Below are positions 4,329-32,000 of a stretch of DNA of 32,000 nt, piece by piece. The notes below the pieces were generated by a model. It searched no databases. It was given only the letters and a program-made list of their open reading frames with translations, and was not told where the DNA came from. The position numbers and the translations under genes were made by a program. This DNA is from Pseudoalteromonas translucida KMM 520 (GTDB lineage Bacteria > Pseudomonadota > Gammaproteobacteria > Enterobacterales > Alteromonadaceae), in assembly GCF_001465295.1 (NCBI RefSeq), contig NZ_CP011034.1:2490001-2522000 (forward strand). The letters are read 5' to 3'. Each line of letters begins with the position of its first letter. The first letter of the stretch is position 1.

Positions 4329-5171
4329 TTAGGGTGACTCTCTCACACGTAAAAAACTAGCAAAACGAGGTAAGCCATTTTTTGTTAAACCATGGAATCG
4401 ATAAGTAATGGTGCTACCCAATGCTGGCGGGCTTTCGCGCTCGGCATCGCTAAATCCGGTGCCAATTGAAAACAGTTGCCCTTGCGGTGTTTTTACTCTT
4501 AACGATCCTAACATGCCTTGGTATTTACCTTTACCCGGCAGGTATGCAATCACTACTGCTTCTGCATCTAAGTAGGGCTTTAATTTTAATAGCGCATCGC
4601 TGCGCCCATCGGCATGTTTAGCGCTTGCTAAATGCAGCATAACGCCTTCGCCACCTTGCGCTGTTATATTTTTAAAATAGTCAGTTAATAATTGATTATT
4701 AATAAACTGATGCTGCTTAACAGCTTTTATATGAGGTGAATTTAAACCCGTAACAAGGCGGCTGTAATTGTTGTAGCGCTGGCTAAAAGGCACGTTTGCA
4801 TCTGGCATATCAAATACTTGATACGTAATACTTTGCCAATCATGATTGTTAGGGATTTTAGTGCGCACAATGCCACTGAGCACCGCAAAGTGCTGATGCT
4901 TAGTCCACAGTTCACCATCAAGCCATACTTTTGGTAAGGGCGCTGTAAACCATTCTGGCGCGTTTATTATATTACCTTGTCGAGTGACAAACTGTTCGCC
5001 TGACCAAATAGCCCTTACACCATCAAACTTTTCGCTGACTAAATAGTTACTTACATCACTGTGCTTAGTTTCATCATACACTTTAGCAAGCAGCACCTTG
5101 GGCAATGTAGCACTCACAATAGAGCTAAAAAATACTGCTGTGATTAAGGTAATTAATTTAATATAAAACAT
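4329..5171 (-). CDS. minimal ATP-dependent DNA ligase with N-terminal signal peptide (Lig E type)
   Basis: Adenylation motif I KxDG (SEKFDGVRAIW) and nucleotidyltransferase plus OB-fold-sized body. The hydrophobic leader MFYIKLITLITAVFFSSIVSA begins at the ATG at 5171; the ORF-track start at 5183 is a TTG. Confidence 0.85.
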   Translation of the reverse strand: MFYIKLITLITAVFFSSIVSATLPKVLLAKVYDETKHSDVSNYLVSEKFDGVRAIWSGEQFVTRQGNIINAPEWFTAPLPKVWLDGELWTKHQHFAVLSGIVRTKIPNNHDWQSITYQVFDMPDANVPFSQRYNNYSRLVTGLNSPHIKAVKQHQFINNQLLTDYFKNITAQGGEGVMLHLASAKHADGRSDALLKLKPYLDAEAVVIAYLPGKGKYQGMLGSLRVKTPQGQLFSIGTGFSDAERESPPALGSTITYRFHGLTKNGLPRFASFLRVRESP

Positions 5172-5203
5172 CAGCGCGTCCAAGCCAGGTAATGTGGTTT
5201 AAA

Positions 5204-5860
5204 CTATAGTTGAGATTGTAGCCATTGCCAAAACTCTTGCAGATCATCCATACGATAACTGGCTTGGCTAAAGTCATGGTTTTGCGTATGGTTATTAGCA
5301 ATCGCCACAACACTTACAGCGGCGTTGTTTGCTGCAGTTACTCCGGTAAAGGTATCCTCTACTGCTATGGCATGTTTAGCAGCTACATTTATCTGCTTGA
5401 GTGCTAATAAGTAAGGATCTCCGGCCGGCTTTGGATTAATAACATCATCTTTAGTGACTACTGCGTCAAATAGGTCATAAAAGCCAAGCCCCTTTAATAT
5501 TGGCTCTGCTTCGTGGCGAGCGCTGCCTGTTACTAACGCCATTTTTAAGCCGCTGCTTTTAACCGCTGTTAATACTTGCTCTGCAAAAGGCATTAGTGCT
5601 GGTAAATTGGTTTTTACATATTGTGCAAATAAACGGTATTTTTCATCTGCTAAATAGTCACTGCTAACCGATAAGTTATGCTGTTGCTTTATTTCACTTG
5701 CAGCTTCGAGCGTTGGCCGCCCCGAAAAACGCTGACAAAACTCACCCTCTTCGTAGTTTACATTAAATGGCGCAAGTACCTGGCTCCAACATGCAAAGTG
5801 CATCCTTTCAGAATCGACTAACGTGCCATCCATATCAAATAATACCGCTTTTAAAGTCAT
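5204..5860 (-). CDS. HAD-superfamily hydrolase (beta-phosphoglucomutase/phosphatase-like)
   Basis: HAD motif I DMDGTLVDSE near the N-terminus, motif II-like LVTGS, and a C-terminal acidic motif (VEDT). Confidence 0.8.
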   Translation of the reverse strand: MTLKAVLFDMDGTLVDSERMHFACWSQVLAPFNVNYEEGEFCQRFSGRPTLEAASEIKQQHNLSVSSDYLADEKYRLFAQYVKTNLPALMPFAEQVLTAVKSSGLKMALVTGSARHEAEPILKGLGFYDLFDAVVTKDDVINPKPAGDPYLLALKQINVAAKHAIAVEDTFTGVTAANNAAVSVVAIANNHTQNHDFSQASYRMDDLQEFWQWLQSQL

Positions 5861-15768: not shown

Positions 15769-17010
15769 ATGCTCGGTAAAATAATTTTAGTCGCCAGTTT
15801 TATTTTTATTATTACTGGCTGTAGCAATACCCTAATTAACGAACAAAATGCTCAACTGGGTACGCGTCCTTATTATTTAATTAACGATATGGACGCTAGT
15901 GATTTAAAAGCACAATTAGAATCGTGTAGTGAAGGCCCTTTTTATCGCACCGACTTTTCAATTGGGCATCGCGGTGCGTCTATGCAGTATCCTGAGCACA
16001 CTAAAGAAGCCTACACTGCTGCTGCAAGAATGGGCGCAGGTATTGTAGAGTGCGATGTTACATTTACAAACGATAATGAACTTGTATGTCGCCATTCACA
16101 ATGCGATTTACACACCACAACCAATATTTTAGCCATTCCTGAATTAGCGGCTAAATGCAGCGAACCATTTATCCCTGCCGACGCTAATGTCGCAGTAACC
16201 GCCTCTGCAAAGTGCTGTACTAGCGACATTAGCTTGAGCGAGTTTTTAACCCTTAAAGGCAAAATGGATGGTGCAAATATTCACGCAACTACTGCTAAGC
16301 AGTATCTGCAGGGCACACCTAATTGGCGCACCGACTTATACGCAACTAATGGCACATTAATGACGCATAAACAAAGTATTGCGTTATTTAAAGCACTCGG
16401 GGTAAAAATGACTCCTGAGCTTAAATCACCAGAAGTTAGCATGCCTTTTAAAGGCATGACGCAAGAACAATACGCGCAAAAAATGTTAGATGAATACACT
16501 CAAATGGATATACCTGCGTCGCGAGTATACCCGCAATCATTTAATCTTGATGACGTAAAATATTGGATAAACAACAATCCTGATTTTGCTGATCAAAGTG
16601 TCTATCTTGACGGGCGCGATAGCGATGCTGGGTTCGATCCTAGTAATCCACAAACATGGCAACCAAGCATGGATGAACTGGTTGCTAATGGGGTGAAAAT
16701 TTTAGCCCCGCCTATTTGGATGATGTTAAAAATAGATAACGAAAGCAATATTGTGCCATCACAATACGCAATTGCCGCTAAAGCTGCGGGCTTAGAGCTT
16801 ATTGCATGGAGCCTTGAACGCTCAGGCCCACTTAACCAAGGTGGTGGCTATTACTATCAATCGATTGCTGATGTAATAAATAACGATGGCGATATGATGA
16901 AAGTAGTTGATGTACTTGCGCAAGATGTTGGTGTAATGGCGATATTTTCCGATTGGCCAGCAACCGTTAGCTACTACGCAAGCTGCAATAAAATGCCTGC
17001 TAGCCTTTAA
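15769..17010 (+). CDS. glycerophosphodiester phosphodiesterase-family protein, lipoprotein-type leader
   Basis: GDPD catalytic signature IGHRGAS..YPEHT...A...GAG.VECDV, and lipobox ITGC. Confidence 0.85.
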
Positions 17011-19727: not shown

Positions 19728-20321
19728 ATGGCAACCAAGCCAACCACACGGTCATTACTAACAAGCAAACGCTTCGCTATTTTTAGTATTGTTACAATTT
19801 GCTTTTTTTTACAGCTAATTAATAGCTTACCTGGCATTAATCTTAATGGTTTTGGCATTTATCCGCGCAGCATTAATGGCTTAATTGGCATACTGTGCGC
19901 GCCATTTTTACATGGCAGTTGGTGGCACTTTGCCAGTAACATGCTGCCTTTTGTAGTTTTAAGTTGGTTGATTTGCCAATACAGTGTTAAGCGTTTTTAT
20001 AGCGTATTTATTTTTACCGCATTAGTAGGTGGCTTTTTAGTATGGGCATTTGGTCGTAGTAATATTCATGTAGGTTTAAGTGGCGTTATATATGGGTTGT
20101 GGGGGTTTATACTTTGTTATGGCGTAATAAGACGTTCATTTAAATCCATTGTTATTGCTGTTGTCGTTGCGCTACTTTACAGCGGATTTGTTTGGGGTGT
20201 ACTACCACAGCGCTTGCATATTTCGTTTGAAAGCCACTTATTTGGGGCGCTAAGCGGATTATTTTTAGGCTATAAATTAGCAAAAGCCGACAAGCTTAAA
20301 AGTCAAAAAACTCGCCTTTAA
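19728..20321 (+). CDS. rhomboid-family intramembrane serine protease
   Basis: Six TM segments, a GLSGVIYG catalytic Ser motif and a downstream His in a TM helix (SHLFGALSG). Confidence 0.8.
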   Translation: MATKPTTRSLLTSKRFAIFSIVTICFFLQLINSLPGINLNGFGIYPRSINGLIGILCAPFLHGSWWHFASNMLPFVVLSWLICQYSVKRFYSVFIFTALVGGFLVWAFGRSNIHVGLSGVIYGLWGFILCYGVIRRSFKSIVIAVVVALLYSGFVWGVLPQRLHISFESHLFGALSGLFLGYKLAKADKLKSQKTRL

Positions 20322-20375
20322 TTTATTTTAATGGCCACATTTATTAATACATGTATTTAAACAGAGGTTATTTTT

Positions 20376-21215
20376 ATGAGTGAGCAAAATCAATACACCC
20401 CACCCAAAGTTTGGACATGGGACAGTGAGAGTGGCGGTAAATTTGCCAGCATTAATCGCCCCATTGCCGGCGCAACTCATGACAAAACCTTGCCAATAGG
20501 CAAACATACATTCCAACTTTATTCGCTTGCTACACCAAATGGTCAAAAAGCCGCGATTATGTTTGAAGAGCTACTAGAGCTGGGCTTAACCGATGCAGAA
20601 TACGACGCATATTTAATAAACATTGGTGATGGCGATCAGTTCGGCTCTGACTTTGTTGATATTAATCCAAATTCAAAAATTCCAGCATTAATGGATCATT
20701 CAACCACGCCGCCAACGCGTATTTTTGAATCGGGCTCTATACTGCAATACTTAGCAGAAAAGTTTGATGTGCTTATACCTAAAGATTTAAAAGCTAAAAC
20801 TGAATGTCGTAACTGGTTATTTTGGCAAATGAGCTCAGCGCCGTACTTAGGTGGTGGCTTTGGCCACTTTTATAGCTATGCCCCCACTAAAATGCAATAT
20901 CCTATTGATCGTTTCACCATGGAAACTAAGCGCCAGCTTGACGTGCTAAATCGCCATTTAAGTGCAAACGAATACATGGCAGGAGATGAGTACTCAATTG
21001 CCGATATCGCAATTTGGCCTTGGTATGGCTCTTTAGTGCTTGGCGACATTTATGATGCAGCTGAATTTTTAGATGTTGCCTCATACACTCATGTTGTACG
21101 TTGGGCTAAACAAGTTTCAGAGCGCCCTGGCGTAAAACGTGGTCGTCGCGTTAACCGCACATGGGGACCTGAAGAAGAGCAACTAGCAGAGCGCCACAGT
21201 AATAACGACTTTTAA
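20376..21215 (+). CDS. yghU: glutathione-dependent disulfide-bond oxidoreductase (Nu-class GST, YghU-like)
   Basis: Near-colinear with my recollection of E. coli YghU: PPKVWTWD...GG.FA.INRP..G.THDKTLP.GKH..QLYSL.TPNGQK, and GGGFGHFY.YAP. Confidence 0.88.
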   Translation: MSEQNQYTPPKVWTWDSESGGKFASINRPIAGATHDKTLPIGKHTFQLYSLATPNGQKAAIMFEELLELGLTDAEYDAYLINIGDGDQFGSDFVDINPNSKIPALMDHSTTPPTRIFESGSILQYLAEKFDVLIPKDLKAKTECRNWLFWQMSSAPYLGGGFGHFYSYAPTKMQYPIDRFTMETKRQLDVLNRHLSANEYMAGDEYSIADIAIWPWYGSLVLGDIYDAAEFLDVASYTHVVRWAKQVSERPGVKRGRRVNRTWGPEEEQLAERHSNNDF

Positions 21216-21580: not shown

Positions 21581-22711
21581 ATGCAAAACGATTTAAGCAA
21601 AAAAATAAACATAGTGTGGTTTAAACGCGATTTACGCCTTAGCGATCATCAGCCATTAAAAAATGCATTTAGTAACGGCTTACCTACCCTACTACTTTAT
21701 AACTTTGAGCCATTACTACTTGAAGATGCACACTACAATGAGCGGCATTGGCGCTTTGTATATCAATCTATAATTGAGTTAAACAAGCAACTAGCGCGCT
21801 TTAATGCCTGCGTTTATATATTTAATTTAAACATGGGTGAGCTACTTGAGTCGTTAAAAGCGCAGTTTGAAATAGTGAATATATTTAGCCATCAAGAAAT
21901 AGGTTTAAACAACACCTTTGAGCGCGATAAAGCTATTAAAGCCTGGTGCCAACATAACCAGGTTAATTGGCAAGTATCGCAAACAGGCGCAGTTATTCGC
22001 GGCAAAAAAAATCGTAACAATTGGAATGAGCGCTGGCAGCAAACAATGCAAGCACCTATTGCTGTTCCTAACTGGAAAAACATAAAAACAATTACCCTCA
22101 ATAACTACCAAACACCTGAGCTGCCAAGCGCTTATACGCAAGATCACGACAGCTTTCAACAAGGTGGCCCGCTGCAAGCACGCACTGTAATGCAGAGCTT
22201 TTTTGCCGAGCGTGGCAAGGGTTATCAAAAAGGAATATCGAGCCCAAGTTTAAGCCAAACTTATTGCTCTCGGCTTTCGCCCTATTTAGCCTGGGGGAAC
22301 ATTAGCCTTAGGCAAGTGTATCAAATGGCCTTTGATGAATACCATTCAAAGCATCCTGATAAAAGAGGCTGGAAGCGCCCGCTTGCTGCATTTGTATCGC
22401 GCTTGCATTGGCACTGCCACTTTATGCAAAAGTTTGAGAGCGAATGCTCTATGGAGTTTTTAGCCCTTAATCCGGGGTATCACGTATTTCCGTATCGTGA
22501 TGACGAAAACGTAAAAAGCGATATTGAACGCTGGGCGCAAGGCCAAACAGGTATTCCAATTATTGACGCTTGCATGCGCTGTTTAAAAGCCACCGGTTAT
22601 ATAAACTTTAGAATGCGTGCCATGCTAGTGAGCTTTGTAACGCATCATTTAAATATAAGCTGGCAGCAAGCAAGCTTGCCTCTCGCTAATTACTTTTTAG
22701 ATTTTGAGCCT
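21581..22711 (+). pseudogene. cryptochrome/photolyase-family gene, 3-prime truncated by an insertion
   Basis: Photolyase N-terminal domain (VWFKRDLRLSDHQPL) and FAD-binding domain run up to ...LANYFLDFEP (codon 377, ending 22711). Family members continue with GIHY.Q.QMQ.G and roughly 100 more residues. Here the frame runs into an AT-rich, unrelated 53-codon tail (22712-22873). Confidence 0.8.
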
Positions 22712-22735
22712 GTAAAAGGAATATGTAAAATAAAA

Positions 22736-22891
22736 ACAGGATACTTTTGGAGCGCTTATATCATAAGGGCTAGAGTTAAAATAAGTATCCTGACGAAGAA
22801 TTGTAAAATTTCCTTACAGGATACTATGAAAAACGAATTTTTCGGTCATTCTGAAACCTATAGACTTGGTTAGGATTTAGAACAGGATACT
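22736..22891. repeat. cluster of the 10-mer ACAGGATACT: three direct copies plus one inverted 9/10 copy
   Basis: Direct copies lie at 22736-22745, 22816-22825 and 22882-22891. The inverted copy AGTATCCTGA lies at 22784-22793. All are read directly from the sequence and begin 25 bp inside the homology breakpoint. Confidence 0.85.
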
Positions 22892-22902
22892 AATTGTCAT
22901 CG

Positions 22903-24099
22903 ATGAATAAAATCCATAAAGAAAGAATAAAGGTTGCTATATGGTGGGTCAAGAAAGATTTTAGACTTAATGACAATGCCGCTCTATTTAATGCTTTAGA
23001 GTCGAATAGCATTGTTATACCGATGTACCTTTTTGAACCGCTATTAATGAATGGACCTGATTGGGGTAGTTTTCATACTGAAGCAATAAGTGATGGCGCT
23101 ATGTCACTAAGTAAAAACCTCACTCACTTCAATAGTAAACTTTTAACTTTTGGCTCATCTCCAATTGACGCTGTAGAGCAAATCCGCCAGAGAGTAAATT
23201 TAAGTGGGTTTGAAGTTAAAGAGGTTTTTTCGCATGAATAAACTGGTCTTACACACACATATAAGAGAGATAAAGAATTTAAAAACTGGTGTCAAAACAA
23301 TGGTATTCAATGACATGAATTTACAAATAACGGTGTTATTAGGGGACCTATAGATAGAAATCATTGGGAAAAACGTTTTGTAAAATACATGATGCAAGAA
23401 CGACCAAAATCTCACAAAGGTAAACTTTCTGCCAGTTTTCCTGAAAAATTAAAAAATATATTTCAAGATAAGTTTTATGATAATTCTGAAACTCACAGAC
23501 CCTCTATTTCCGAATCAGAATACATGAACGTAAGCGAACGGTCAGGAAACCTAATACTTAAGGATTTTTTAAATAATAGAGGTCAAAAATACAGGGGTTG
23601 CATTAGTAGTATGAATAGAGCAACTGAAGCTTGCTCTAGGCTATCTGCACAAATTGCGTGGGGCTCGTTGTCTTTAAGAACAGTCTTGCAGGAGTGTGAT
23701 AAAAGAATTGAAGAAATTAATACCAAAGATCCCATCACATCAAAACATTGGAGGTTTAGTTTAGTAAATTTCAGGTCTAGGCTTTTTTGGCATTCACATT
23801 TTGTTCAGAAGCTCGAAAATCAAGTTGATATGGAGTTCAATGCTGTAAATAAAGCATTTAGAAGTGGCTTGCCGTGCATCTATGCGGAAATCGACAATTG
23901 CGAGCACAATAAACGTTTAGAAGCATGGTTACATGGGGAAACAGGGTTCCCAGCTATCGATGCAGCCATGCGTTATTATCAAAGATATGGATGGCTTAAT
24001 TTTCGATCTAGAGCAATTATTACTAGCTTTGCATGTAATGCGCTTAGGTTGCCATGGCAAACGGTCCTATACGAACTGTCGGAAGACAATAATGTTTGA
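22903..24099 (+). pseudogene. second, divergent cryptochrome/photolyase-family gene with two in-frame stops and a 3-prime truncation
   Basis: ORFs 22894-23241 and 23389-24099 share one frame. The stretch between them translates as TGLTHTYKRDKEFKNWCQNNGIQ*HEFTNNGVIRGPIDRNHWEKRF, colinear with the upstream copy. TAA at 23239-23241 aligns with Glu and TGA at 23311-23313 aligns with Trp. Homology ends near ...PWQTVLYELS. Confidence 0.8.
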
Positions 24100-24302
24100 A
24101 ACTTTTTTGCCTTCCCAGTCCGTTCCTTTCGTGTCAATAGAAGGTATGTATGACAATAAAGATCAAAACTTAGATTCAATCAACGTGCCTATCCAAAGAA
24201 AAATTGTGACAACAAAGATTAAAACTCACTTTTGGACAAAAACGTTTCTGAGCCGAATGACAGCTCTGTGCCATAAGCGGTCATTGGTAATACCTCAATA
24301 AT

Positions 24303-24355
24303 AAGTTGTTAGTAAAGGTTGGCTAGAATGAGTTGCGCCTTGCCAACCACAACTT
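24303..24355 (-). terminator. imperfect hairpin downstream of the radical-SAM remnant
   Basis: AAGTTGT (24303-24309) pairs with ACAACTT (24349-24355), and GGTTGGC (24317-24323) pairs with GCCAACC (24342-24348). Confidence 0.35.
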
Positions 24356-24364
24356 ATTTCTTTG

Positions 24365-24992
24365 CTATTTTTTTTCGCATACACCACACTTAATACAGTA
24401 GCCATGTGGGTCTTCATTTATATAATCAGCAGGATTTGGGATATTAAGGATGTATGAATTAACACAACTAGACTTTTTAAATGCCTTGATGCCAGACTTT
24501 TCAAGTAGAGAAGAAAACTCTAGCATCTTACGTGAAATATTAATTTCGTAAGATTCACCAGAAGTACAATCTAAAACCTGTTTATCACCACTAATCTCTA
24601 TTTCCAAAGAGGCATCAGGCAACTTAAAAAGCTGAGCTTTAATTATTTCATCAACGAATAGATCACCAACCACACAATGCTCTACGCCAAATTTATTAAA
24701 AACCTTAATAAAACTATTAATCTCAAGATCAGTAATACCTGATAAGAATGGTTTGACCATTACATTTGTTGATACTCCGTTATCTCTTAATTTTTTTATA
24801 CTCTTGAGCCTTAATTCAGGCTTATCAGCATAAGGCTCAATTTCCCTGCTTCTACTAAGAGTGCTAACAGACGTTGAATAAAGTATTTGCCCAGCATAAG
24901 AATTACATTTCACAATACCCTCGACAACATCATCACTCAGCTCATATCGACTCATTATTTGTATTGGATTTTTTAGCTTTGCTAGCTCGCTT
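24365..24992 (-). pseudogene. radical-SAM protein remnant (COG1533/SplB-like), lacking its N-terminal CxxxCxxC region
   Basis: The pattern ILYSTSVSTLSRSREIEPYADKPELRLKSIKKLRDNGVSTNVMVKPFLSGITDLEI fits the distal half of the radical-SAM barrel in the COG1533 family. No Fe-S cluster motif is present, and the frame is cut at 24992 by the IS3 left end. The apparent GTG start at 25018 lies inside the IS inverted repeat. Confidence 0.5.
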
Positions 24993-25069
24993 TGTAGTGG
25001 TACAGTGATTTTGGCCACCCATTAAGAAAGAAATGTTATGCTAATAAGCATACAAATTTGGGTGAAAAA

Positions 25070-26250
<1,181 letters not shown>

Positions 26251-26258
26251 CCACTACA

Positions 26259-26351
26259 GTTTCTGTACCAGAACGTTGTGTCTTATGTATTGGTCAGGCA
26301 TCAACATATTACTATGTCCAAATAGTTTCTTTAAAATCAAAATTGATAACG
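26259..26351 (-). pseudogene. stranded C-terminal segment of the downstream tyrosine recombinase (carries the catalytic Tyr)
   Basis: The minus strand reads, in phase with 28757.. once the IS66 is removed: (TLS)ILILKKLFGHSNMLMPDQYIRHNVLVQK. This is the LGH....Y box II tail of tyrosine recombinases. No stop is reached before the IS3 end at 26258. Confidence 0.75.
26344..26351. repeat. IS66 target-site duplication, left copy (TGATAACG)
   Basis: Identical 8-mer at 28757-28764, immediately outside the IS66 inverted repeats. Confidence 0.9.
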
Positions 26352-26431
26352 GTGAGCGTCCGGCAAATTGCGTCTGACAAATTAATCTCAACTTAAGTAA
26401 GTTACAACCAAACAATTATTTGGAGTAACTT

Positions 26432-26731
26432 ATGAGAATTATGCGCAGCCCAGAGCAATGGCAAACCATCATCCATGAACAACAATCAAGTGGTTTAACC
26501 ATCATTGATTATTGCCGGCAACATCAATTATCAATGACTAGCTTTTATGCGGTAAGAAAGAAACTCGGCCTATCATCGAATAATTTCGTTCGCGCCAAAA
26601 TTACACAGCAAGTCGAAATAGTTGATGAACAACCATCCATCACGTTAACTGTTGGCAAGGCAAACGTTAGTTTGCCAGCCACAACCTCTGCAACGTATTT
26701 AAGCCAGTTACTACGCGAGTTTGTTCAATGA
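26432..26731 (+). CDS. tnpA: IS66-family accessory protein TnpA (orf1)
   Basis: 99 aa, first gene of the IS66 trio. Its stop overlaps the tnpB start (ATGA). Confidence 0.8.
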   Translation: MRIMRSPEQWQTIIHEQQSSGLTIIDYCRQHQLSMTSFYAVRKKLGLSSNNFVRAKITQQVEIVDEQPSITLTVGKANVSLPATTSATYLSQLLREFVQ

Positions 26732-27075
26732 AAATGTTTGTTGAGCCGTCAGAGGTTTTTCTGCATCGGGATTTTGTCGACTTTCGAAAAAGTATTAATG
26801 GCTTAGTGAGTATTGTTGAAGATGAGCTTGTTCGCGATGCCTATACCGGTACGTTGTTTGTATTTTGTAACAAGGCCAAAGATAAGCTGAAAATTCTATA
26901 CTGGGATAAAACAGGGTTCGCGCTTTGGTATAAACGACTTGAAAAGCAAAAATTCAAATGGCCAAGTAAACTATCGAGCCAGGAATTTGAATTAACCTAT
27001 CAACAACTGGATTGGTTGTTATCTGGATATGACGTGCTTGGCCATGAACCGCTGCACTATCAGTCACCGATCTAA
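26728..27075 (+). CDS. tnpB: IS66-family accessory protein TnpB (orf2)
   Basis: 115 aa with the conserved IS66 Orf2 pattern DFRKSINGL...V......G.LFVF.NK..DKLKIL.WD..GF.LWYKRLE. Confidence 0.88.
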   Translation: MKMFVEPSEVFLHRDFVDFRKSINGLVSIVEDELVRDAYTGTLFVFCNKAKDKLKILYWDKTGFALWYKRLEKQKFKWPSKLSSQEFELTYQQLDWLLSGYDVLGHEPLHYQSPI

Positions 27076-27171
27076 CTAGATCTTTTATCAGTCAACGATC
27101 GTGTACGCAAGTCCTTATTCTATTTGCGTTACAAAGCAGAATCATCTGTCTGTTCTTGCTAAACTCGATGG

Positions 27172-28734
27172 ATGAAAATTGATACTAACTCACTCCCTGA
27201 CGACCCAGAACAACTCAAGCAAATGTTGCTTGAGTTGCAGGCTGAAACTACCCAAGAGTTAGCGAAAAAAGATAAAATCATCAGTGAACAAGCCATTCAA
27301 ATTAATCAGTTTATTGAACGCTATGAAATTGCCAAGCGTAAACAGTTTGGTAAAAGCTCCGAGCAACTCCCGGGGGCGGGGGAAACCTTCAATGAAGCGG
27401 AAGAAATCATTGATGAGGCCGATAAAACGTTATTAGCTGCGGCTGATAGTCACAGTAAGGTCACAATTAAAAACAAACCGACGCGCAAGCCACTGCCAAA
27501 AGAATTACCTCGAAAAGTGGTGACAATTGATTTGTCCATTGATGAAAAAGTGTGTGATTGTTGCCAAGGTAAGCTGCATAAAATTGGTGAAGCTCGTAGT
27601 GAAAAACTTGAGTTTGTTCCTGCGTACATCAAAGTGATAGAGACAGTTCGACCGAAATATGCCTGTAAAAGGTGTGAGCAAACTGGCACAGAAAATTCTA
27701 TAAAAGTTGCACCTGTTCCAGCAACCCCCATTCCTAAAGGCATTGCCACCAGTAGTTTGCTGAGTCAAATCATCAGCGCCAAATATCAATATGGGTTGCC
27801 GCTATATAGGCAAGAAAAAATGTTCAATGAGTATGGTATTGAGCTGAGTCGTAAAACCATGTCAGATTGGATAATACGGTGTAGTGAATTACTGATGCCA
27901 TTAGTTAACGAGCTAAAAGCAGCATTGCTTAGTCAAGCGGTGCTCCATGCCGACGAAACGCCCTTAAAGGTGATTAAGGCCGATAATAGCAGCAGTTACA
28001 TGTGGGTGTATTGTTGTGGTAGCGATTCGGTGGCCGCCAATAGTTTGCCAAATATTATCCTCTATGATTATCACAACTCTCGTGCCGCAGCTTGTGTAGT
28101 TGATTACCTTGGTGACTATGACGGTTACCTGCAAGTCGATGGTTATGCAGCGTACGGAAAAACAGATGCAATATTGGCAGGTTGTATGGCGCATGCACGT
28201 CGAAAATTCATTGATGCGAAAACGGTGCAAACGAAAAACAAAACCGGCAAAGCCGATGTTGCCTTAAGTCTTATTAGAAAACTCTACGGCATTGAGGCAA
28301 GCTTAAAAGACAAAACGGCCGCAGAAACGTATCAAGCACGGCAGGAAAGTTCAAAACCCATCATCGATAAACTTCACCATTGGATTATCGAAAATAAAGA
28401 TAAAGTGCCACCGAAAAGTAAACTTGGTGAAGCGATTACGTATTGGTGTAACCAAGAACATAAGCTCATCACCTATTTAAAAGATGGTCGCATAAATATA
28501 GATAACAATCGCGCTGAGCGGGCTGTGAAACCGTTTGTGATTGGCAGAAAAAACTGGTTATTCTCCAATACCGCGCGGGGTGCAACGGCTAGCGCCGTGC
28601 TCTATAGTATTATTGAAACCGCGAAAGCGAACGGACTGTTGGTCGACAACTATTTGCAAACCTGCCTAGATGAGCTTGCTAAAAAGCCTGAAAGTGTAGA
28701 GCACTTGCTACCTTGGAATGTTAATCAAGGCTAG
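27172..28734 (+). CDS. tnpC: IS66-family transposase TnpC
   Basis: 520 aa with an N-terminal coiled coil, a zinc-finger region (CDCC...C.RC), and a DDE core (HADETP..., QVDGYAAY, ...NNRAERA.KP...GRKNWLF). Confidence 0.92.
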   Translation: MKIDTNSLPDDPEQLKQMLLELQAETTQELAKKDKIISEQAIQINQFIERYEIAKRKQFGKSSEQLPGAGETFNEAEEIIDEADKTLLAAADSHSKVTIKNKPTRKPLPKELPRKVVTIDLSIDEKVCDCCQGKLHKIGEARSEKLEFVPAYIKVIETVRPKYACKRCEQTGTENSIKVAPVPATPIPKGIATSSLLSQIISAKYQYGLPLYRQEKMFNEYGIELSRKTMSDWIIRCSELLMPLVNELKAALLSQAVLHADETPLKVIKADNSSSYMWVYCCGSDSVAANSLPNIILYDYHNSRAAACVVDYLGDYDGYLQVDGYAAYGKTDAILAGCMAHARRKFIDAKTVQTKNKTGKADVALSLIRKLYGIEASLKDKTAAETYQARQESSKPIIDKLHHWIIENKDKVPPKSKLGEAITYWCNQEHKLITYLKDGRINIDNNRAERAVKPFVIGRKNWLFSNTARGATASAVLYSIIETAKANGLLVDNYLQTCLDELAKKPESVEHLLPWNVNQG

Positions 28735-28756
28735 ACGCATTTGCTCAGACGCTTAC

Positions 28757-28764
28757 TGATAACG
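28757..28764. repeat. IS66 target-site duplication, right copy (TGATAACG)
   Basis: Identical to 26344-26351. Confidence 0.9.
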
Positions 28765-30202
28765 TGCTATTTGTTCCAATATATCCAGCAAGCGTTGCTC
28801 TAATGCAGTGGCATGTTCCTTCTTCATCTTCTTCACTAATAGTTTCAAGCTTGATATTAAATCGCTTTGCAAAAGCACTTAGTCGCCTATTTATAGTGTT
28901 GCCGACTCGACATAAGTTGTCATTATTGTTATGAGGTCCATGTGCAAAGGAGAATAGTCTATTCTGCACGAGAAAATTACTATCCTTGGAATAATTAAGC
29001 AGCTTCAGTAATTTTATCGCCTGAATACATGGCTCACCAATAGGAATGTAAATAGTATTCCTAGTTTTCTTTACTTGACACTCGAGAAACCATATTTTGT
29101 ATTGTTTACTATATTTTAAGCAATCAGTCTTTAGATTTCTAAGATCAACGTTTCTTAGTCCCGTTGACAATAAAACCACCCATAGCGCTCCGCTCTGGGC
29201 TATCGAAAAAAGCTCTGTAAACCATTCCGCATTAATTGACTTATCGTACCAATCAAACTCACTTTCCCTCAAATGGTCTTCTTGTTTATGATTTAGTTCC
29301 ACTAAGAAATTTTGTTCTTTATAAAGTAGTTTTTGAAAGCATTCATCACGTGTAAAGAAAGTATTCAGGTTAGTATAATTGCGTCCTTTAAAATATTTTA
29401 ACCTAAGTCTTTTAATCAAGGTTAGAAACGCTACTATCGGCAAACTCTTGTCTTCGTTAGAAAGCTCAATTCCGTGTTCTGGTGAAACGCTAATTCCTTG
29501 ATAAAGTTTGGATGCACTCTTTACAATTCCAGATATCGTTTCTTCAGAAAATGAAGAATATGGTTTTCTATTACTTACTACTTTATTTTCAATAGTATTG
29601 CACGAATTTGTCCACGTTTGTGATGTGACACCCTCGTGTGTCCACGGTGTCAAAAATCCCGACAAGAAGATCTGCAAATCTTCAAATTTTTGGGCTTTTT
29701 CTAGCGTACTCAAAGCACTAGTATAATTATCACTTACTTTGTCTATTGATTTATTAGTTATCATCAAATACAAATCGTGCACACCAAGCTCAGCCAATGA
29801 TACCCATGGCGCGTTTTTCTCTGCACTCAATATAGGATTTGGTAAACCAAGTAACTGAGGGCAAAATGAAGTAATCAAATAAGTAACTTTTCCGTAGACT
29901 GTCCCGTGGCTGTAATTAAGAACTTTCATACAATAAACTATAAAAATTTTTAAAAGTACTATTAGCGGTAACGCAGATTGGTGCTTGTAAAGAGACTCAA
30001 AGATAAAAGGCTTTGAAAAAGAATCTTCTGTTGGGATCAGCCATGTTTTGTCCTCAAACTTAGAACTCGTTATTGATGAAATATCCATTTTTTCATATTT
30101 TTCAGTCAGTAGAGATAACATCTCCCATTGCTTTTTACCTATATCAAAACGACTTTCGTTAGGCGCTTCAATCACAATTTCTTGTGTTTCATTTTTATAC
30201 AT
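28757..30202 (-). pseudogene. large atypical tyrosine recombinase, 3-prime end interrupted by IS66
   Basis: Recombinase motifs are present: box I LLSTGLRNVDLRNL, a beta-hairpin Lys region VKKTRNTIYIPI, and HxxR as CHCIRATLAGY. The ORF-track tail LSVSV* is read from the IS66 end. The likely start is the ATG at 30202, 6 nt after GAGG; the alternative GTG at 30214 overlaps the upstream stop as GTGA. Confidence 0.8.
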
Positions 30203-30210
30203 ATTGCGCC

Positions 30211-32000
30211 TCACAGTATTGGGGGTAACATTGGTTGGTCTTTTGATTCTGCAGATCTTGCTAGCACAAAACCTTGGTCTACTATAAGATCTCCATCTGG
30301 GTGGTCGTTACGAAATTTTTCTAGACAATCAATAGCTATTGCTTTTCTATCGGCTATTATTTCATTAGTTGGAGAGGGCATATTTTCATATTGTAGTATT
30401 CTGAAACATATCCTAGGGATATGCTCTGCAAAAACAACGCTACGCTCACAACCTAAGCAGAGGTCATAAAGTTTACACTTTCCTGCAATAGGAATATCGT
30501 GTGTTGGTTTTAGAGGGTCTTTGCAATCACAAAGATATACCGGAACATTTTCTAACGACTTATCATTCGTGTGTCCAATACTCCCCTTGAACTCCAAGGC
30601 TTCTTCGAACATTTTATTTGTTAAAGCAAGAACAGCACTACTGTACACAAAGTTACCAACGCCTGTTTTTAAAATATAATTACACATAGTAGTATCAAAG
30701 TTATTATGATTTAGTGCGTCTCTCAACTTACGGGCGAGATCGGCGGCGTTCGACGTTGAATCAAGTAACTGCACTAAACTTGTAGCTGCATATACTTTCC
30801 TGAGTTTTCTAGAATCTATATATGTTAATTGTTTTATGTTTTCGTCATAAATTGGAAATCGCTTACAGAAGGCAGCTATGTCTGAACCAATATTATTCGT
30901 GCCAATAAAATATGCCGAATTGTTGTCAGAGAAAACAGATTCCCATAAATCTAACACGTCATAGATAAAAGAGTTAACGGGGACTCGTAAATCAATATTT
31001 TTAGATACTACCCCCCTCGTCTTTTTACCAGTTACTCTTAATACTGTTTGACTGAGTATTTTTTTCGCATCAACACCCAGCTCGATATCTGTGCGATTTT
31101 TCCAGTGCAACAAATCATACTGTCGCAATAGAGATGTAATCGATTGTCTATTAAAACCAGTCTGACAAATTAACAATAGAATTATAGCGGCTTCATTGGA
31201 CGGGAAAGTTAACAAATAAGTTCTTTTGAATTCAATATAACCTTCCATATCCCCTCGTTCGTAGAGAGCCGAAACATATGCCACAAAATCGTCTTTTAAC
31301 TCTTTATTAATTCCCTTTCTATCTAGCTTTTTAATTATATGCCTAAAGAAATGGTCTCTGGCGTACAATTTCTGCTTAGAAAACGGAGTATTGAATTTAA
31401 TAGACTTAGCGAACACCAAGAAATTTTGATGTAAAAGTATCAATGCCTCATTCTTTTGGGTTTTGTATAGTTCAATTATTCTATACAACGCGGAACTCTC
31501 AACCGGATTTTTGTGATTTTCAAATTCTTGTGCCGAAATAAGATAACCTCTTTCTTCTAATTCATGTTCATCAACACTTACAAGCCAACCCCAACGTTCT
31601 TTTATAAAATTAAATTGATAGGTCGCATAACCCAATAACTGCATTAAAACTGAATCGTCATAAGTGTTACTCTCGAAGATATTTTCAACATTGGCGTCGA
31701 AGCTTTTTTTATCAGTTATTTTTTTAATACTTATTGATCTTGGAAAATTAGAGGGAAAAATATAGCTTAAAGTACTCGCTTCCGTGTTCGCTAATCGCTG
31801 TTTTTTAAATTCTACTATTTTAAATTCATCAATTTCAGAGATACTGCTAATATTAAAATGTTGAATACAAAACGTAATAAATTTTGAAAGGGTGTCATAT
31901 GTAGAATTTAATTTTTTTCTGCTTGATACAGAAGATACTGCCCATTTTGAAAATAATGTTGCAGCTATTTCTCGCAAATCTCTATGCGGATCTGTTTGAT
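30211..32000 (-). CDS. large atypical tyrosine recombinase with a Cys-rich C-terminal extension (5-prime end beyond the window)
   Basis: Motifs are ICQTGFNRQS (box I Arg), GKKTRGVVSKNIDLRVPV (Lys hairpin), SRKLRKVYAATS (box II Arg, with RxxR in place of HxxR) and LNHNNFDTTMCNYILK. The Tyr codon is at 30676-30678. The frame stays open upstream of the listed TTG start through position 32000 (..QTDPHRD-LREIAAT), so this CDS is partial. Confidence 0.75.
   Translation of the reverse strand, partial: QTDPHRDLREIAATLFSKWAVSSVSSRKKLNSTYDTLSKFITFCIQHFNISSISEIDEFKIVEFKKQRLANTEASTLSYIFPSNFPRSISIKKITDKKSFDANVENIFESNTYDDSVLMQLLGYATYQFNFIKERWGWLVSVDEHELEERGYLISAQEFENHKNPVESSALYRIIELYKTQKNEALILLHQNFLVFAKSIKFNTPFSKQKLYARDHFFRHIIKKLDRKGINKELKDDFVAYVSALYERGDMEGYIEFKRTYLLTFPSNEAAIILLLICQTGFNRQSITSLLRQYDLLHWKNRTDIELGVDAKKILSQTVLRVTGKKTRGVVSKNIDLRVPVNSFIYDVLDLWESVFSDNNSAYFIGTNNIGSDIAAFCKRFPIYDENIKQLTYIDSRKLRKVYAATSLVQLLDSTSNAADLARKLRDALNHNNFDTTMCNYILKTGVGNFVYSSAVLALTNKMFEEALEFKGSIGHTNDKSLENVPVYLCDCKDPLKPTHDIPIAGKCKLYDLCLGCERSVVFAEHIPRICFRILQYENMPSPTNEIIADRKAIAIDCLEKFRNDHPDGDLIVDQGFVLARSAESKDQPMLPPIL

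Follow-up and report, generated by a model that had tools for sequence, protein, structure and literature searches.

RIT elements carry three tyrosine recombinases of ordinary size and no accessory protein. Of the other integrative elements with more than one recombinase, GInts are flanked by imperfect direct repeats of 10-11 nt (PMC5385486). SE elements hold their recombinase module and a host-derived spacer at the same end; the central bases of the target stay there, and the spacer of the previous site goes to the far end (PMC10214605). In Tn554-type elements the previous-site spacer is likewise delivered to the far end, and the target bases stay at the recombinase end (PMC12486829). Here we analyse a stretch of 32,000 nt from Pseudoalteromonas translucida KMM 520 (contig NZ_CP011034.1, positions 2,490,001 to 2,522,000), called the window below. 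Its right part, 22713-32000, is a damaged island with large recombinase genes that splits a photolyase gene.

This island, together with about 330 bp beyond the window edge, is probably what remains of a site-specific integrative element in the photolyase gene, a degenerate and immobile copy, with the gene module and the mechanism that we propose below. As far as could be established, the element belongs with the multi-tyrosine-recombinase integrative elements and is apparently undescribed; no prior description of its module, A-B-C-(E-F)-D, was found in the literature. The inventory of the window was made from a map of open reading frames (ORFs) and from Pfam and NCBIfam scans, and is collected in Table 1. 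Loci fetched for comparison are numbered with the prefix L.

The photolyase insertion site and the ends of the element

The disrupted host gene encodes a cry2-type photolyase. Its product is 94-96% identical to intact Pseudoalteromonas orthologs of 503-509 aa, the best of them from Pseudoalteromonas nigrifaciens, P. arctica and allies, but the match extends no further than residue ~377. Six Pseudoalteromonas contigs (L003-L008) have the empty, uninterrupted site, and the DNA match to them stops after GAGCCTG at 22712, within the motif LDFEP|GIHY. The empty sites read GAGCCTG GAATTCA CTACCCG, and the left junction of the window reads GAGCCTG TAAAAGG AATATGTAAAAT... The right junction, past the window edge, was read in relatives; it is ...ATTTACGTATTT GTATTCA TTATCCG in L001, an intact copy on a 3.3-Mb contig, and ...ATTTACGTATTT GGATCCA CTACCCG in L031. 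The relatives resume the photolyase gene at G[T/G]AT[T/C]CA, where the empty site is GAGCCTG|GAATTCA. The breakpoints of the window and of the relatives are complementary to the base, with none of the target duplicated and none lost.

The photolyase 3' fragment directly adjoins the recombinase end in L001, L002, L031 and L032, which are intact, 97-98% identical copies. At least two other host backgrounds, which differ in their flanking genes, carry the same element at this identity, inserted at the identical nucleotide of the orthologous photolyase gene; L031, whose contig is the longest of its set, has host flanking genes other than those of L001. Between these two loci, identity is 77-87% in the host fragment and rises to 95-98% from the first base of the terminus (AAATACGTAAAT), and this sharp step fixes the recombinase-proximal boundary there. 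The element has thus inserted at one defined position inside a conserved coding motif, without target duplication, and has spread horizontally between hosts. The split photolyase gene in the window is an ordinary remnant of a dead element.

The surroundings of the site are those of a chromosome. Ordinary chromosomal genes fill positions 1-21000 of the window. The genes upstream of the photolyase gene vary, with rhomboid and GST-like genes in the window (19728-21215) and a flavin reductase or PfkB kinase gene in the empty-site genomes (L003-L008, 5272-5880). Downstream, the order OsmC, M20 peptidase, DUF2986 and TonB receptor is common to L001 and the empty sites. One of the empty sites, L008, has an IS3-family element (4539-5711, HTH_Tnp_1 and rve) about 300 bp upstream of its intact photolyase gene.

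Inverted repeats form the termini of the element. The proximal terminus, beside gene A, is conserved in 11 loci of the family described below and consists of AAATACGTAAA, ~10 nt and a GGATACT-like box; the copies in L015/L016 and L020 deviate. L010 and L011 have the GGATACT box ~24 nt into their proximal termini. When the left end of the window is compared with the proximal end of L001, both read inward, 27 of 34 positions match, a score reached by none of 1000 shuffles. A nhmmer profile of 10 proximal termini has its best match outside the training set at window positions 22723-22755. This match is weak (E 0.75, 10 bits) and inverted relative to gene A. No distal termini of other family members were found within 10-kb flanks by regular expressions, reverse-complement comparison or nhmmer.

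Between the host DNA and the distal repeat lie seven foreign nucleotides, TAAAAGG, and at the proximal end there are seven host nucleotides. The latter are host-derived in L001 and L031, and beside proximal termini they always fit the host gene. TAAAAGG is possibly a footprint brought from the previous site. Just inside, CAGGATACT boxes are concentrated: the whole window has five copies against 0.11 expected (~45-fold enrichment), of which four are at this end, and we infer that the extra boxes are accessory binding sites. The fifth copy lies outside the island (15986-15994, minus strand), at or near the start of a GDPD-family gene (ORF 15769-17010), and is probably a chance match. The G+C content is 0.34-0.36 at the left end of the island, against about 0.36-0.46 in the host DNA to its left.

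These results bear out much of a first-pass annotation of the window, which had placed a junction at 22712, followed by an AT-rich end with repeats, decayed cargo, an IS3 and an IS66; all of these were recovered at the positions in Table 1. Its expectation that the photolyase 3' fragment would adjoin the recombinase end was borne out in the relatives. It had also named a possible refutation, a separate element for the recombinase genes with both of its ends to the right of 28757. This does not hold, because the sequence that begins at 22713 repeats the proximal terminus, imperfectly and in inverted orientation.

The recombinase module and its relatives

In L001 a 121-aa photolyase 3' fragment, on the opposite strand, is followed by genes A (673 aa), B (732 aa), C (334 aa) and D (463 aa), and then by cargo. 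The modules of L031, L032 and L033 have 96-99% protein identity to this one. Scanning GTDB, one genome per species, with an alignment of gene B gave 19 family loci. A, B and C have the same order in all of them, with overlapping or abutting frames; D is within reach in 16, and nine have two more genes, E and F, before D. The resulting order is A-B-C-(E-F)-D, with sizes of ~690 aa for A, ~730 for B, ~335 for C, ~460 for D, ~260 for E and ~730 for F. The hosts are Gammaproteobacteria (Alteromonas, Glaciecola, Psychrobium, five Pseudoalteromonas, Oleiphilus, Colwellia and metagenome-assembled genomes), Betaproteobacteria (Methylotenera, Sideroxydans, Undibacterium and Gallionella) and Zetaproteobacteria (Mariprofundus). 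The family is rare: an exhaustive search with a profile of A recovered only 97 representatives among 1.84 billion proteins. No relative of B was found on any PLSDB plasmid or in IMG/VR viral contigs, and, as in SEs, the fetched stretches showed no genes for conjugation.

Gene B is demonstrably a tyrosine recombinase, with the R-K-H-R-H-Y set and a predicted Cre/XerD-like fold. Its homologs have 690-740 aa, and the closest, P0001, is the 732-aa protein of L001. Intact B scores 32.0 bits on Pfam Phage_integrase (PF00589), against a cutoff of 27.1, and residues R354, K383, H469, R472, H496 and Y505 are invariant in 20 sequences. A structural model (pLDDT 78) matches Cre and XerA in Foldseek (probability 1.00, E 6e-4). 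The copy in the window keeps the first four of these residues and is cut off from H496 and Y505.

Gene A encodes a large protein specific to the family, a probable degenerate recombinase-like subunit, judged from its residue pattern. The invariant positions G359-x-N361, with Asn in place of the first Arg, K404, S475-x-x-R478, H509 and Y519 have recombinase-like spacing, and two members match the integrase SAM-like N-terminal domain. PF00589 matches none of 21 members, and the A of the window has no Pfam or NCBIfam match. Both A and B carry C-terminal Cys clusters; that of A is a Cys/His cluster, which in eleven members weakly matches the ZZ-type zinc finger.

Gene D also encodes a complete tyrosine recombinase. 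It keeps R217 in 17 of 17 sequences, and K257, H348, R351, H393 and Y402 in 16 (the odd one is a truncated ORF); intact D passes the Pfam integrase cutoff. C, a gene absent from the window, has a coiled-coil N-terminal half and a C-terminal P-loop domain. A profile of 17 C proteins matches the kinase domain of CthPnkp (4gp6, E 3.4e-8), T4 polynucleotide kinase (1ly1, E 3.8e-5) and Pnkp1 (4xrp), and the alignments bring the Walker A, DATN and RNxxR motifs into register; Pfam AAA_33 gives 33.3 bits against a cutoff of 27. The P-loop domain belongs with the polynucleotide 5'-kinases, and kinase activity is predicted. Among the curated NCBIfam models none fits A, B or C; C alone has a weak match, to Pnkp. 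The product of F is a RecD2-like SF1B helicase, with 312 bits on TIGR01448, below the curated cutoff of 500. It matches the RecD-like models of PADLOC, in which C and E have no match.

The gene flanking A is truncated in most loci examined, and its identity changes from lineage to lineage. Peptidase M49 genes are cut within the zinc motif, HEVA|H, in L012, L013 and L020 (at ~7790), and a DUF5117 metalloprotease gene is cut at HEVG in L019 (at ~7680). A DUF808 gene is truncated in L015 and L016, and a RecQ gene lacks its first ~50 residues in L022. In L011 a ThiF-family gene and in L018 a cytochrome b561 gene look essentially complete. As the targets differ by locus, the photolyase target is a property of the photolyase sublineage and not of the family. 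The two metalloprotease genes, which are unrelated, are hit in HEV(A/G)(H) codons that share the DNA sequence CAYGARGTTGS; target choice therefore seems to follow the DNA sequence that encodes the catalytic motif.

A full-length, intact M49 paralog follows D closely in the M49-targeting elements (L013, 20175-21842; L020, 17604-19274) and is ~70% identical in DNA to the disrupted host copy. The idea that this downstream copy serves as a substitute 5' portion, fused to the 3' part of the host gene, was rejected, since L013 and L020 show neither a terminus at HEVA|H nor a rise of identity in the 3' part. Since the island in the window has a photolyase paralog of its own, phr2 (see below), at least two lineages carry a paralog of their target gene, and such a paralog may be recurrent cargo. 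We regard this as a lead only.

In its account of the genes, the first-pass annotation had reported at least two overlapping large tyrosine-recombinase genes transcribed leftward, the second open at the edge. Both genes are there, and the second is open as described, but only B is demonstrably a tyrosine recombinase, A having no match to an integrase model. The 489-aa ORF of B is only the N-terminal two thirds of a gene of ~732 aa that was split by IS66. A third recombinase gene, which it anticipated, exists in the intact copies as D and has been lost from the window; with C, the intact arrangement there comprises three recombinase-type genes and one other. In line with the polarity it had proposed (recombinase operon at one end, cargo in the middle and an AT-rich far end), the intact copies have the module beside the photolyase 3' fragment and the cargo after it.

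Comparison with SE, GInt, Tn554 and RIT elements

SE proteins were taken from SE-Pda04Ya311 (pAQU1, L028) and SE-PaeBT2436 (pBT2436, L029), and GInt proteins from the Escherichia coli Sakai GInt (L030), with coordinates from the supplement of PMC10214605. BLASTP of A-D against these twelve proteins gave nothing better than E 0.1, and the best match to IntA, Tfp, IntB or Srap of the two SEs had an E value of 0.48. In profile comparisons with hhalign, D matched GinA with a probability of 73% and SE IntA (pAQU1) with 88%, B matched GinB with 16% and A matched SE IntA with 33%, all of them matches of the catalytic domain only. A reached at most 3% against Tfp. The N-terminus of C matched Srap with 63% (pBT2436, E 7e-5) and 27%, over 27-58 residues only. 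On these comparisons, A-D have no family-level similarity to SE or GInt proteins. The comparison with Tn554 and RIT elements was one of architecture and description.

The element could be regarded as an SE, with relatives of Tfp, IntB, Srap and IntA. As in SEs, a module at one end combines two catalytic tyrosine recombinases of the RHRY type, one ordinary and one large, with a recombinase-like protein that lacks the full set and a coiled-coil accessory protein. Imperfect terminal inverted repeats, the absence of target duplication and a host-derived spacer by the recombinase end (PMC10214605) are common to both, as is the spacer footprint, which here is read from one distal end. Specific targets and marine gammaproteobacterial hosts are also shared, and Alteromonadales are major SE hosts. 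The weak hhalign matches of the N-terminus of C to Srap (pBT2436) and of D to IntA (pAQU1) point the same way.

Nevertheless, we consider this assignment unlikely. The SE gene order intA-tfp-intB-srap was found in none of 20 loci; their module opens with the degenerate protein and closes with the ordinary-size recombinase. The SE survey recognized its elements by Tfp and Srap homologs in a synteny block, and A-D provide no such pair. SE proteins have 429-545 aa (IntA), 576-614 aa (Tfp), 671-679 aa (IntB) and 154-161 aa (Srap), whereas C has 335 aa and a polynucleotide-kinase-like domain that is missing from Srap. SEs have no counterpart of E and the RecD2-like helicase, a pair added by half of the members, and their repeats have 13-19 bp, against about 34 bp in this family. 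The C-terminal Cys clusters of A and B are a further difference. Finally, the family has members in Beta- and Zetaproteobacteria, two classes in which the tfp-srap survey had no finds.

GInts share the tripartite layout, in which cargo lies between a terminal recombinase operon and a short AT-rich far end, and insertion inside a protein gene. They also have four core genes, including a recombinase-like protein without the first Arg (GinC there, A here). In contrast to the element described here, the Sakai GInt has GinA (401 aa) and GinB (437 aa), both of ordinary size, then GinC (543 aa) in third place and GinD of 132 aa. The imperfect direct repeats of 10-11 nt that are typical of GInts are absent at the flanks, ...GAGCCTG|TAAAAGG and GTATTCA|TTATCC. 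The sequences, order and sizes of A-D are thus unlike those of SEs and GInts, and the element falls outside both groups as they are defined, although it is clearly built on the same plan.

The Tn554 family (tnpA-tnpB-tnpC) shares the absence of target duplication; its flanking spacer of 6-7 bp travels with the element from the previous site and ends up at the far end. The junctions described above are compatible with such a carried flank, on the evidence of one distal end only. A member of this family, the staphylococcal Tn554-like Tn552-II, carries a gene like its own target gene, proposed to rescue the disrupted target (PMC12486829), as the window does with phr2 and the M49-targeting relatives do with their M49 copy. 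By description, Tn554-type elements differ in belonging to Firmicutes and in having three genes, with no degenerate third recombinase, kinase-like domain or helicase. RIT elements share several tandem tyrosine-recombinase genes between inverted repeats; they differ, again by description, in that here two of the proteins have about 700 aa and a kinase-like protein stands between them and D.

The first-pass annotation had suggested an undescribed lineage with a photolyase-gene target, not assignable by eye to the known families. The lineage part stands as far as these comparisons go, given the lack of SE or GInt similarity, of a fitting NCBIfam model and of a published description, and the profile comparison it had pointed to gave only the catalytic-domain and weak C/Srap matches reported above. 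The photolyase target applies to one sublineage.

Decay of the window copy and a proposed mechanism

Table 1. Features of the disrupted photolyase gene and the island, in window positions.
Feature	Position	Strand	Remarks
Host cry2-type photolyase gene, 5' part (codons 1 to ~377), integration target	21581..22712	+	Pfam DNA_photolyase and first half of FAD_binding_7
7-nt spacer TAAAAGG between host DNA and distal inverted repeat	22713..22719		Matches neither host gene nor repeat
Distal terminal inverted repeat AATATGTAAAATAAAAACAGGATACTTTTGGA	22720..22755	+	Inverted imperfect copy of proximal terminus
Four CAGGATACT boxes, candidate recombinase binding sites	22737..22891		Forward at 22737, 22817 and 22883; reverse at 22784
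phr2, cargo photolyase-family paralog, pseudogene	22894..24084	+	Two in-frame stops; C-terminal ~130 aa missing
3' remnant of PA0069/Rv2578c-type radical-SAM gene, cut by IS3	24365..24992	-	NCBIfam NF033668, profile positions 145-248 of 348
IS3-family element, no target duplication	24993..26258	+	orfA 25058-25381, orfB 25420-26250; Pfam HTH_Tnp_1 and rve
Gene B internal fragment (codons ~483-514, including GHSN...Y505), stranded between IS3 and IS66	26259..26351	-	93 bp; 100% identical to L001 11439-11531
IS66-family element in gene B	26352..28756	+	Three ORFs: 26432-26731, tnpB 26728-27075, transposase 27172-28734; Pfam TnpB_IS66 and DDE_Tnp_IS66
Gene B, 5' two thirds, large tyrosine recombinase	28757..30214	-	489-aa ORF; 98% identical to P0001 (732 aa) over residues 1-485
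Gene A, codons 79-673 of 673, open at window edge	30211..32000	-	97% identical to P0166

The right part of the island, 28757-32000, corresponds to L001 11446-8203 with 98.6% identity. IS66 is flanked by an 8-bp duplication, TGATAACG, at 26344-26351 and 28757-28764. The two matches of L001 to the pieces of gene B overlap by these 8 bp, which shows a simple insertion of IS66 into B. IS3 has terminal repeats TGTAGTGGT...TTTGGCCAC, the first beginning at 24993, and cuts B again at codon ~514, joining it to the middle of the radical-SAM gene. Its flanks are CTT and GTT, so there is no target duplication, and this IS3 marks a joint made by deletion or recombination. Missing from the window are the remainder of B, the whole of C and D, and some amount of cargo; the copy is inactivated.

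The simplest reading of the island is one element bounded by imperfect inverted repeats, from 22713 to about 32330. Its history probably had three steps. IS66 would have inserted into B; a deletion associated with IS3, or recombination of two IS3 copies, would then have removed the 3' end of B, C, D and part of the cargo; and the remaining cargo, phr2 and the radical-SAM gene, would have decayed.

Because IS3 lacks a target duplication, the two halves could also have been joined by recombination between two IS3 copies. In an alternative reading, IS3-mediated recombination would have fused a recombinase element on the right to an unrelated decayed photolyase/radical-SAM segment, 22713-24992, that was never its cargo. 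None of the fetched intact relatives has an equivalent of the left 2.3 kb, and the cargo of L001 and L031, which are 97-100% identical up to L001 18485, is fully divergent after about 10.6 kb. We nevertheless consider such an accretion improbable. The 22712/22713 boundary is the exact complement of the right boundary of the relatives, in the same codon of the same gene, and the left end carries the family terminal repeat in inverted orientation. Two elements inserting at the same nucleotide and then recombining would take more events than one internal deletion, and the left piece would still belong to the same family. A single element comprising both the left 2.3 kb and the right 3.2 kb from the outset is the simplest reading rather than a demonstrated one.

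It is very improbable that A-B-C-(E-F)-D is a chromosomal DNA-rearrangement or defence system that merely lies beside disrupted genes: RecD-like helicases, such as F with its PADLOC matches, and P-loop proteins are common in defence islands, and L001 carries defence-like genes (Tmn-like and PbeA-like), but C and E lack PADLOC matches, empty and occupied sites both exist, near-identical copies in divergent hosts show a sharp identity step at the terminus, the disrupted genes differ between lineages and the terminal sequence stands at a fixed distance from gene A.

The cargo of the window differs from that of the intact photolyase-targeting copies, which have defence-like cargo (L001 15169-22199; L031 17209-20229). 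This includes PbeA/type IV restriction-like helicase, VspR-like, HTH control and Xre/ParS_C-like genes, and in L001 also a Tmn-like gene (YobI ATPase). The product of phr2 is 31% identical to the host photolyase. Relatives of it from metagenomes have 41-57% identity and show no linkage to the module; the one nearest to it, L046, has 84% identity over 88 aa and is on a 2-kb contig. Homology to this closest intact relative (L046, 129-725) ends at 24084 (...LYELS), ~20 nt upstream of the position equivalent to the attachment site (VDYVP|GIHV), and no terminus-like sequence follows. A nested insertion of a sibling element into phr2 is unsupported by this arrangement. The radical-SAM remnant represents a family annotated as DNA-repair photolyase-like.

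Several points weigh against the reading of the island as a single decayed element with the proposed module and mechanism. The right junction of the window copy lies outside the window. The distal end is known from one case, and the reading of the spacer as brought in rests on it. IS3 has no target duplication, and IS3 recombination could have attached the left 2.3 kb, taken from another, related element. No intact relative with the phr2 and radical-SAM cargo was found among the fetched loci or in a metagenome collection subjected to an exact scan with the distal terminus. The profile of the A family has no sequence match in the PDB, and a model of A (pLDDT 50, from a 6-sequence alignment) has no fold match to solved structures. 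The roles given below to the kinase-like protein and the helicase are conjecture. For all members, excision, a circular form and transposition are predictions.

With these points in mind, a mechanism can be proposed for the intact element, which has inverted-repeat termini and two recombinases with complete sets of catalytic residues. B and D would exchange strands at the two ends, with A as a non-cleaving partner and C as a non-catalytic or accessory partner. The role of A is proposed from SEs and GInts, which combine two active recombinases with one degenerate one and need all core genes. The exchange would cross a heterologous spacer of 6-7 bp, as in Tn554 and SEs; the host spacer would stay beside the recombinase end, and the distal end would receive the previous-site spacer. 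Cleavage by tyrosine recombinases leaves 5'-OH ends. Speculatively, the kinase-like domain of C and the helicase could process 5'-OH nicks or unwind one strand; a 5'-kinase-like protein together with a 5'-3' helicase would suggest the processing of unresolved nicks and the displacement of one strand that the copy-out models of SE and Tn554 require.

A broader proposal, which we put forward tentatively and think doubtful, is that A-B-C-(E-F)-D defines a distinct class of element. The kinase-like protein, and often a RecD2-type helicase, would be integral to it, perhaps phosphorylating or holding the 5'-OH ends and peeling off one strand to give a single-stranded copy-out intermediate, and a paralog of the target gene, which such elements may carry routinely, would compensate for the disrupted copy.

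SE, Tn554 and GInt elements move resistance and virulence genes, and how tyrosine recombinases give a copy-out-like, strand-biased reaction is unsettled. A kinase-like protein and a helicase hard-wired in the module point to host functions that the other families may borrow. With few members, and clean attachment sites inside conserved coding motifs, this is a testable family. If it were indeed a distinct class, it would offer a genetic handle on how Tn554 and SEs circularize without leaving an empty site.

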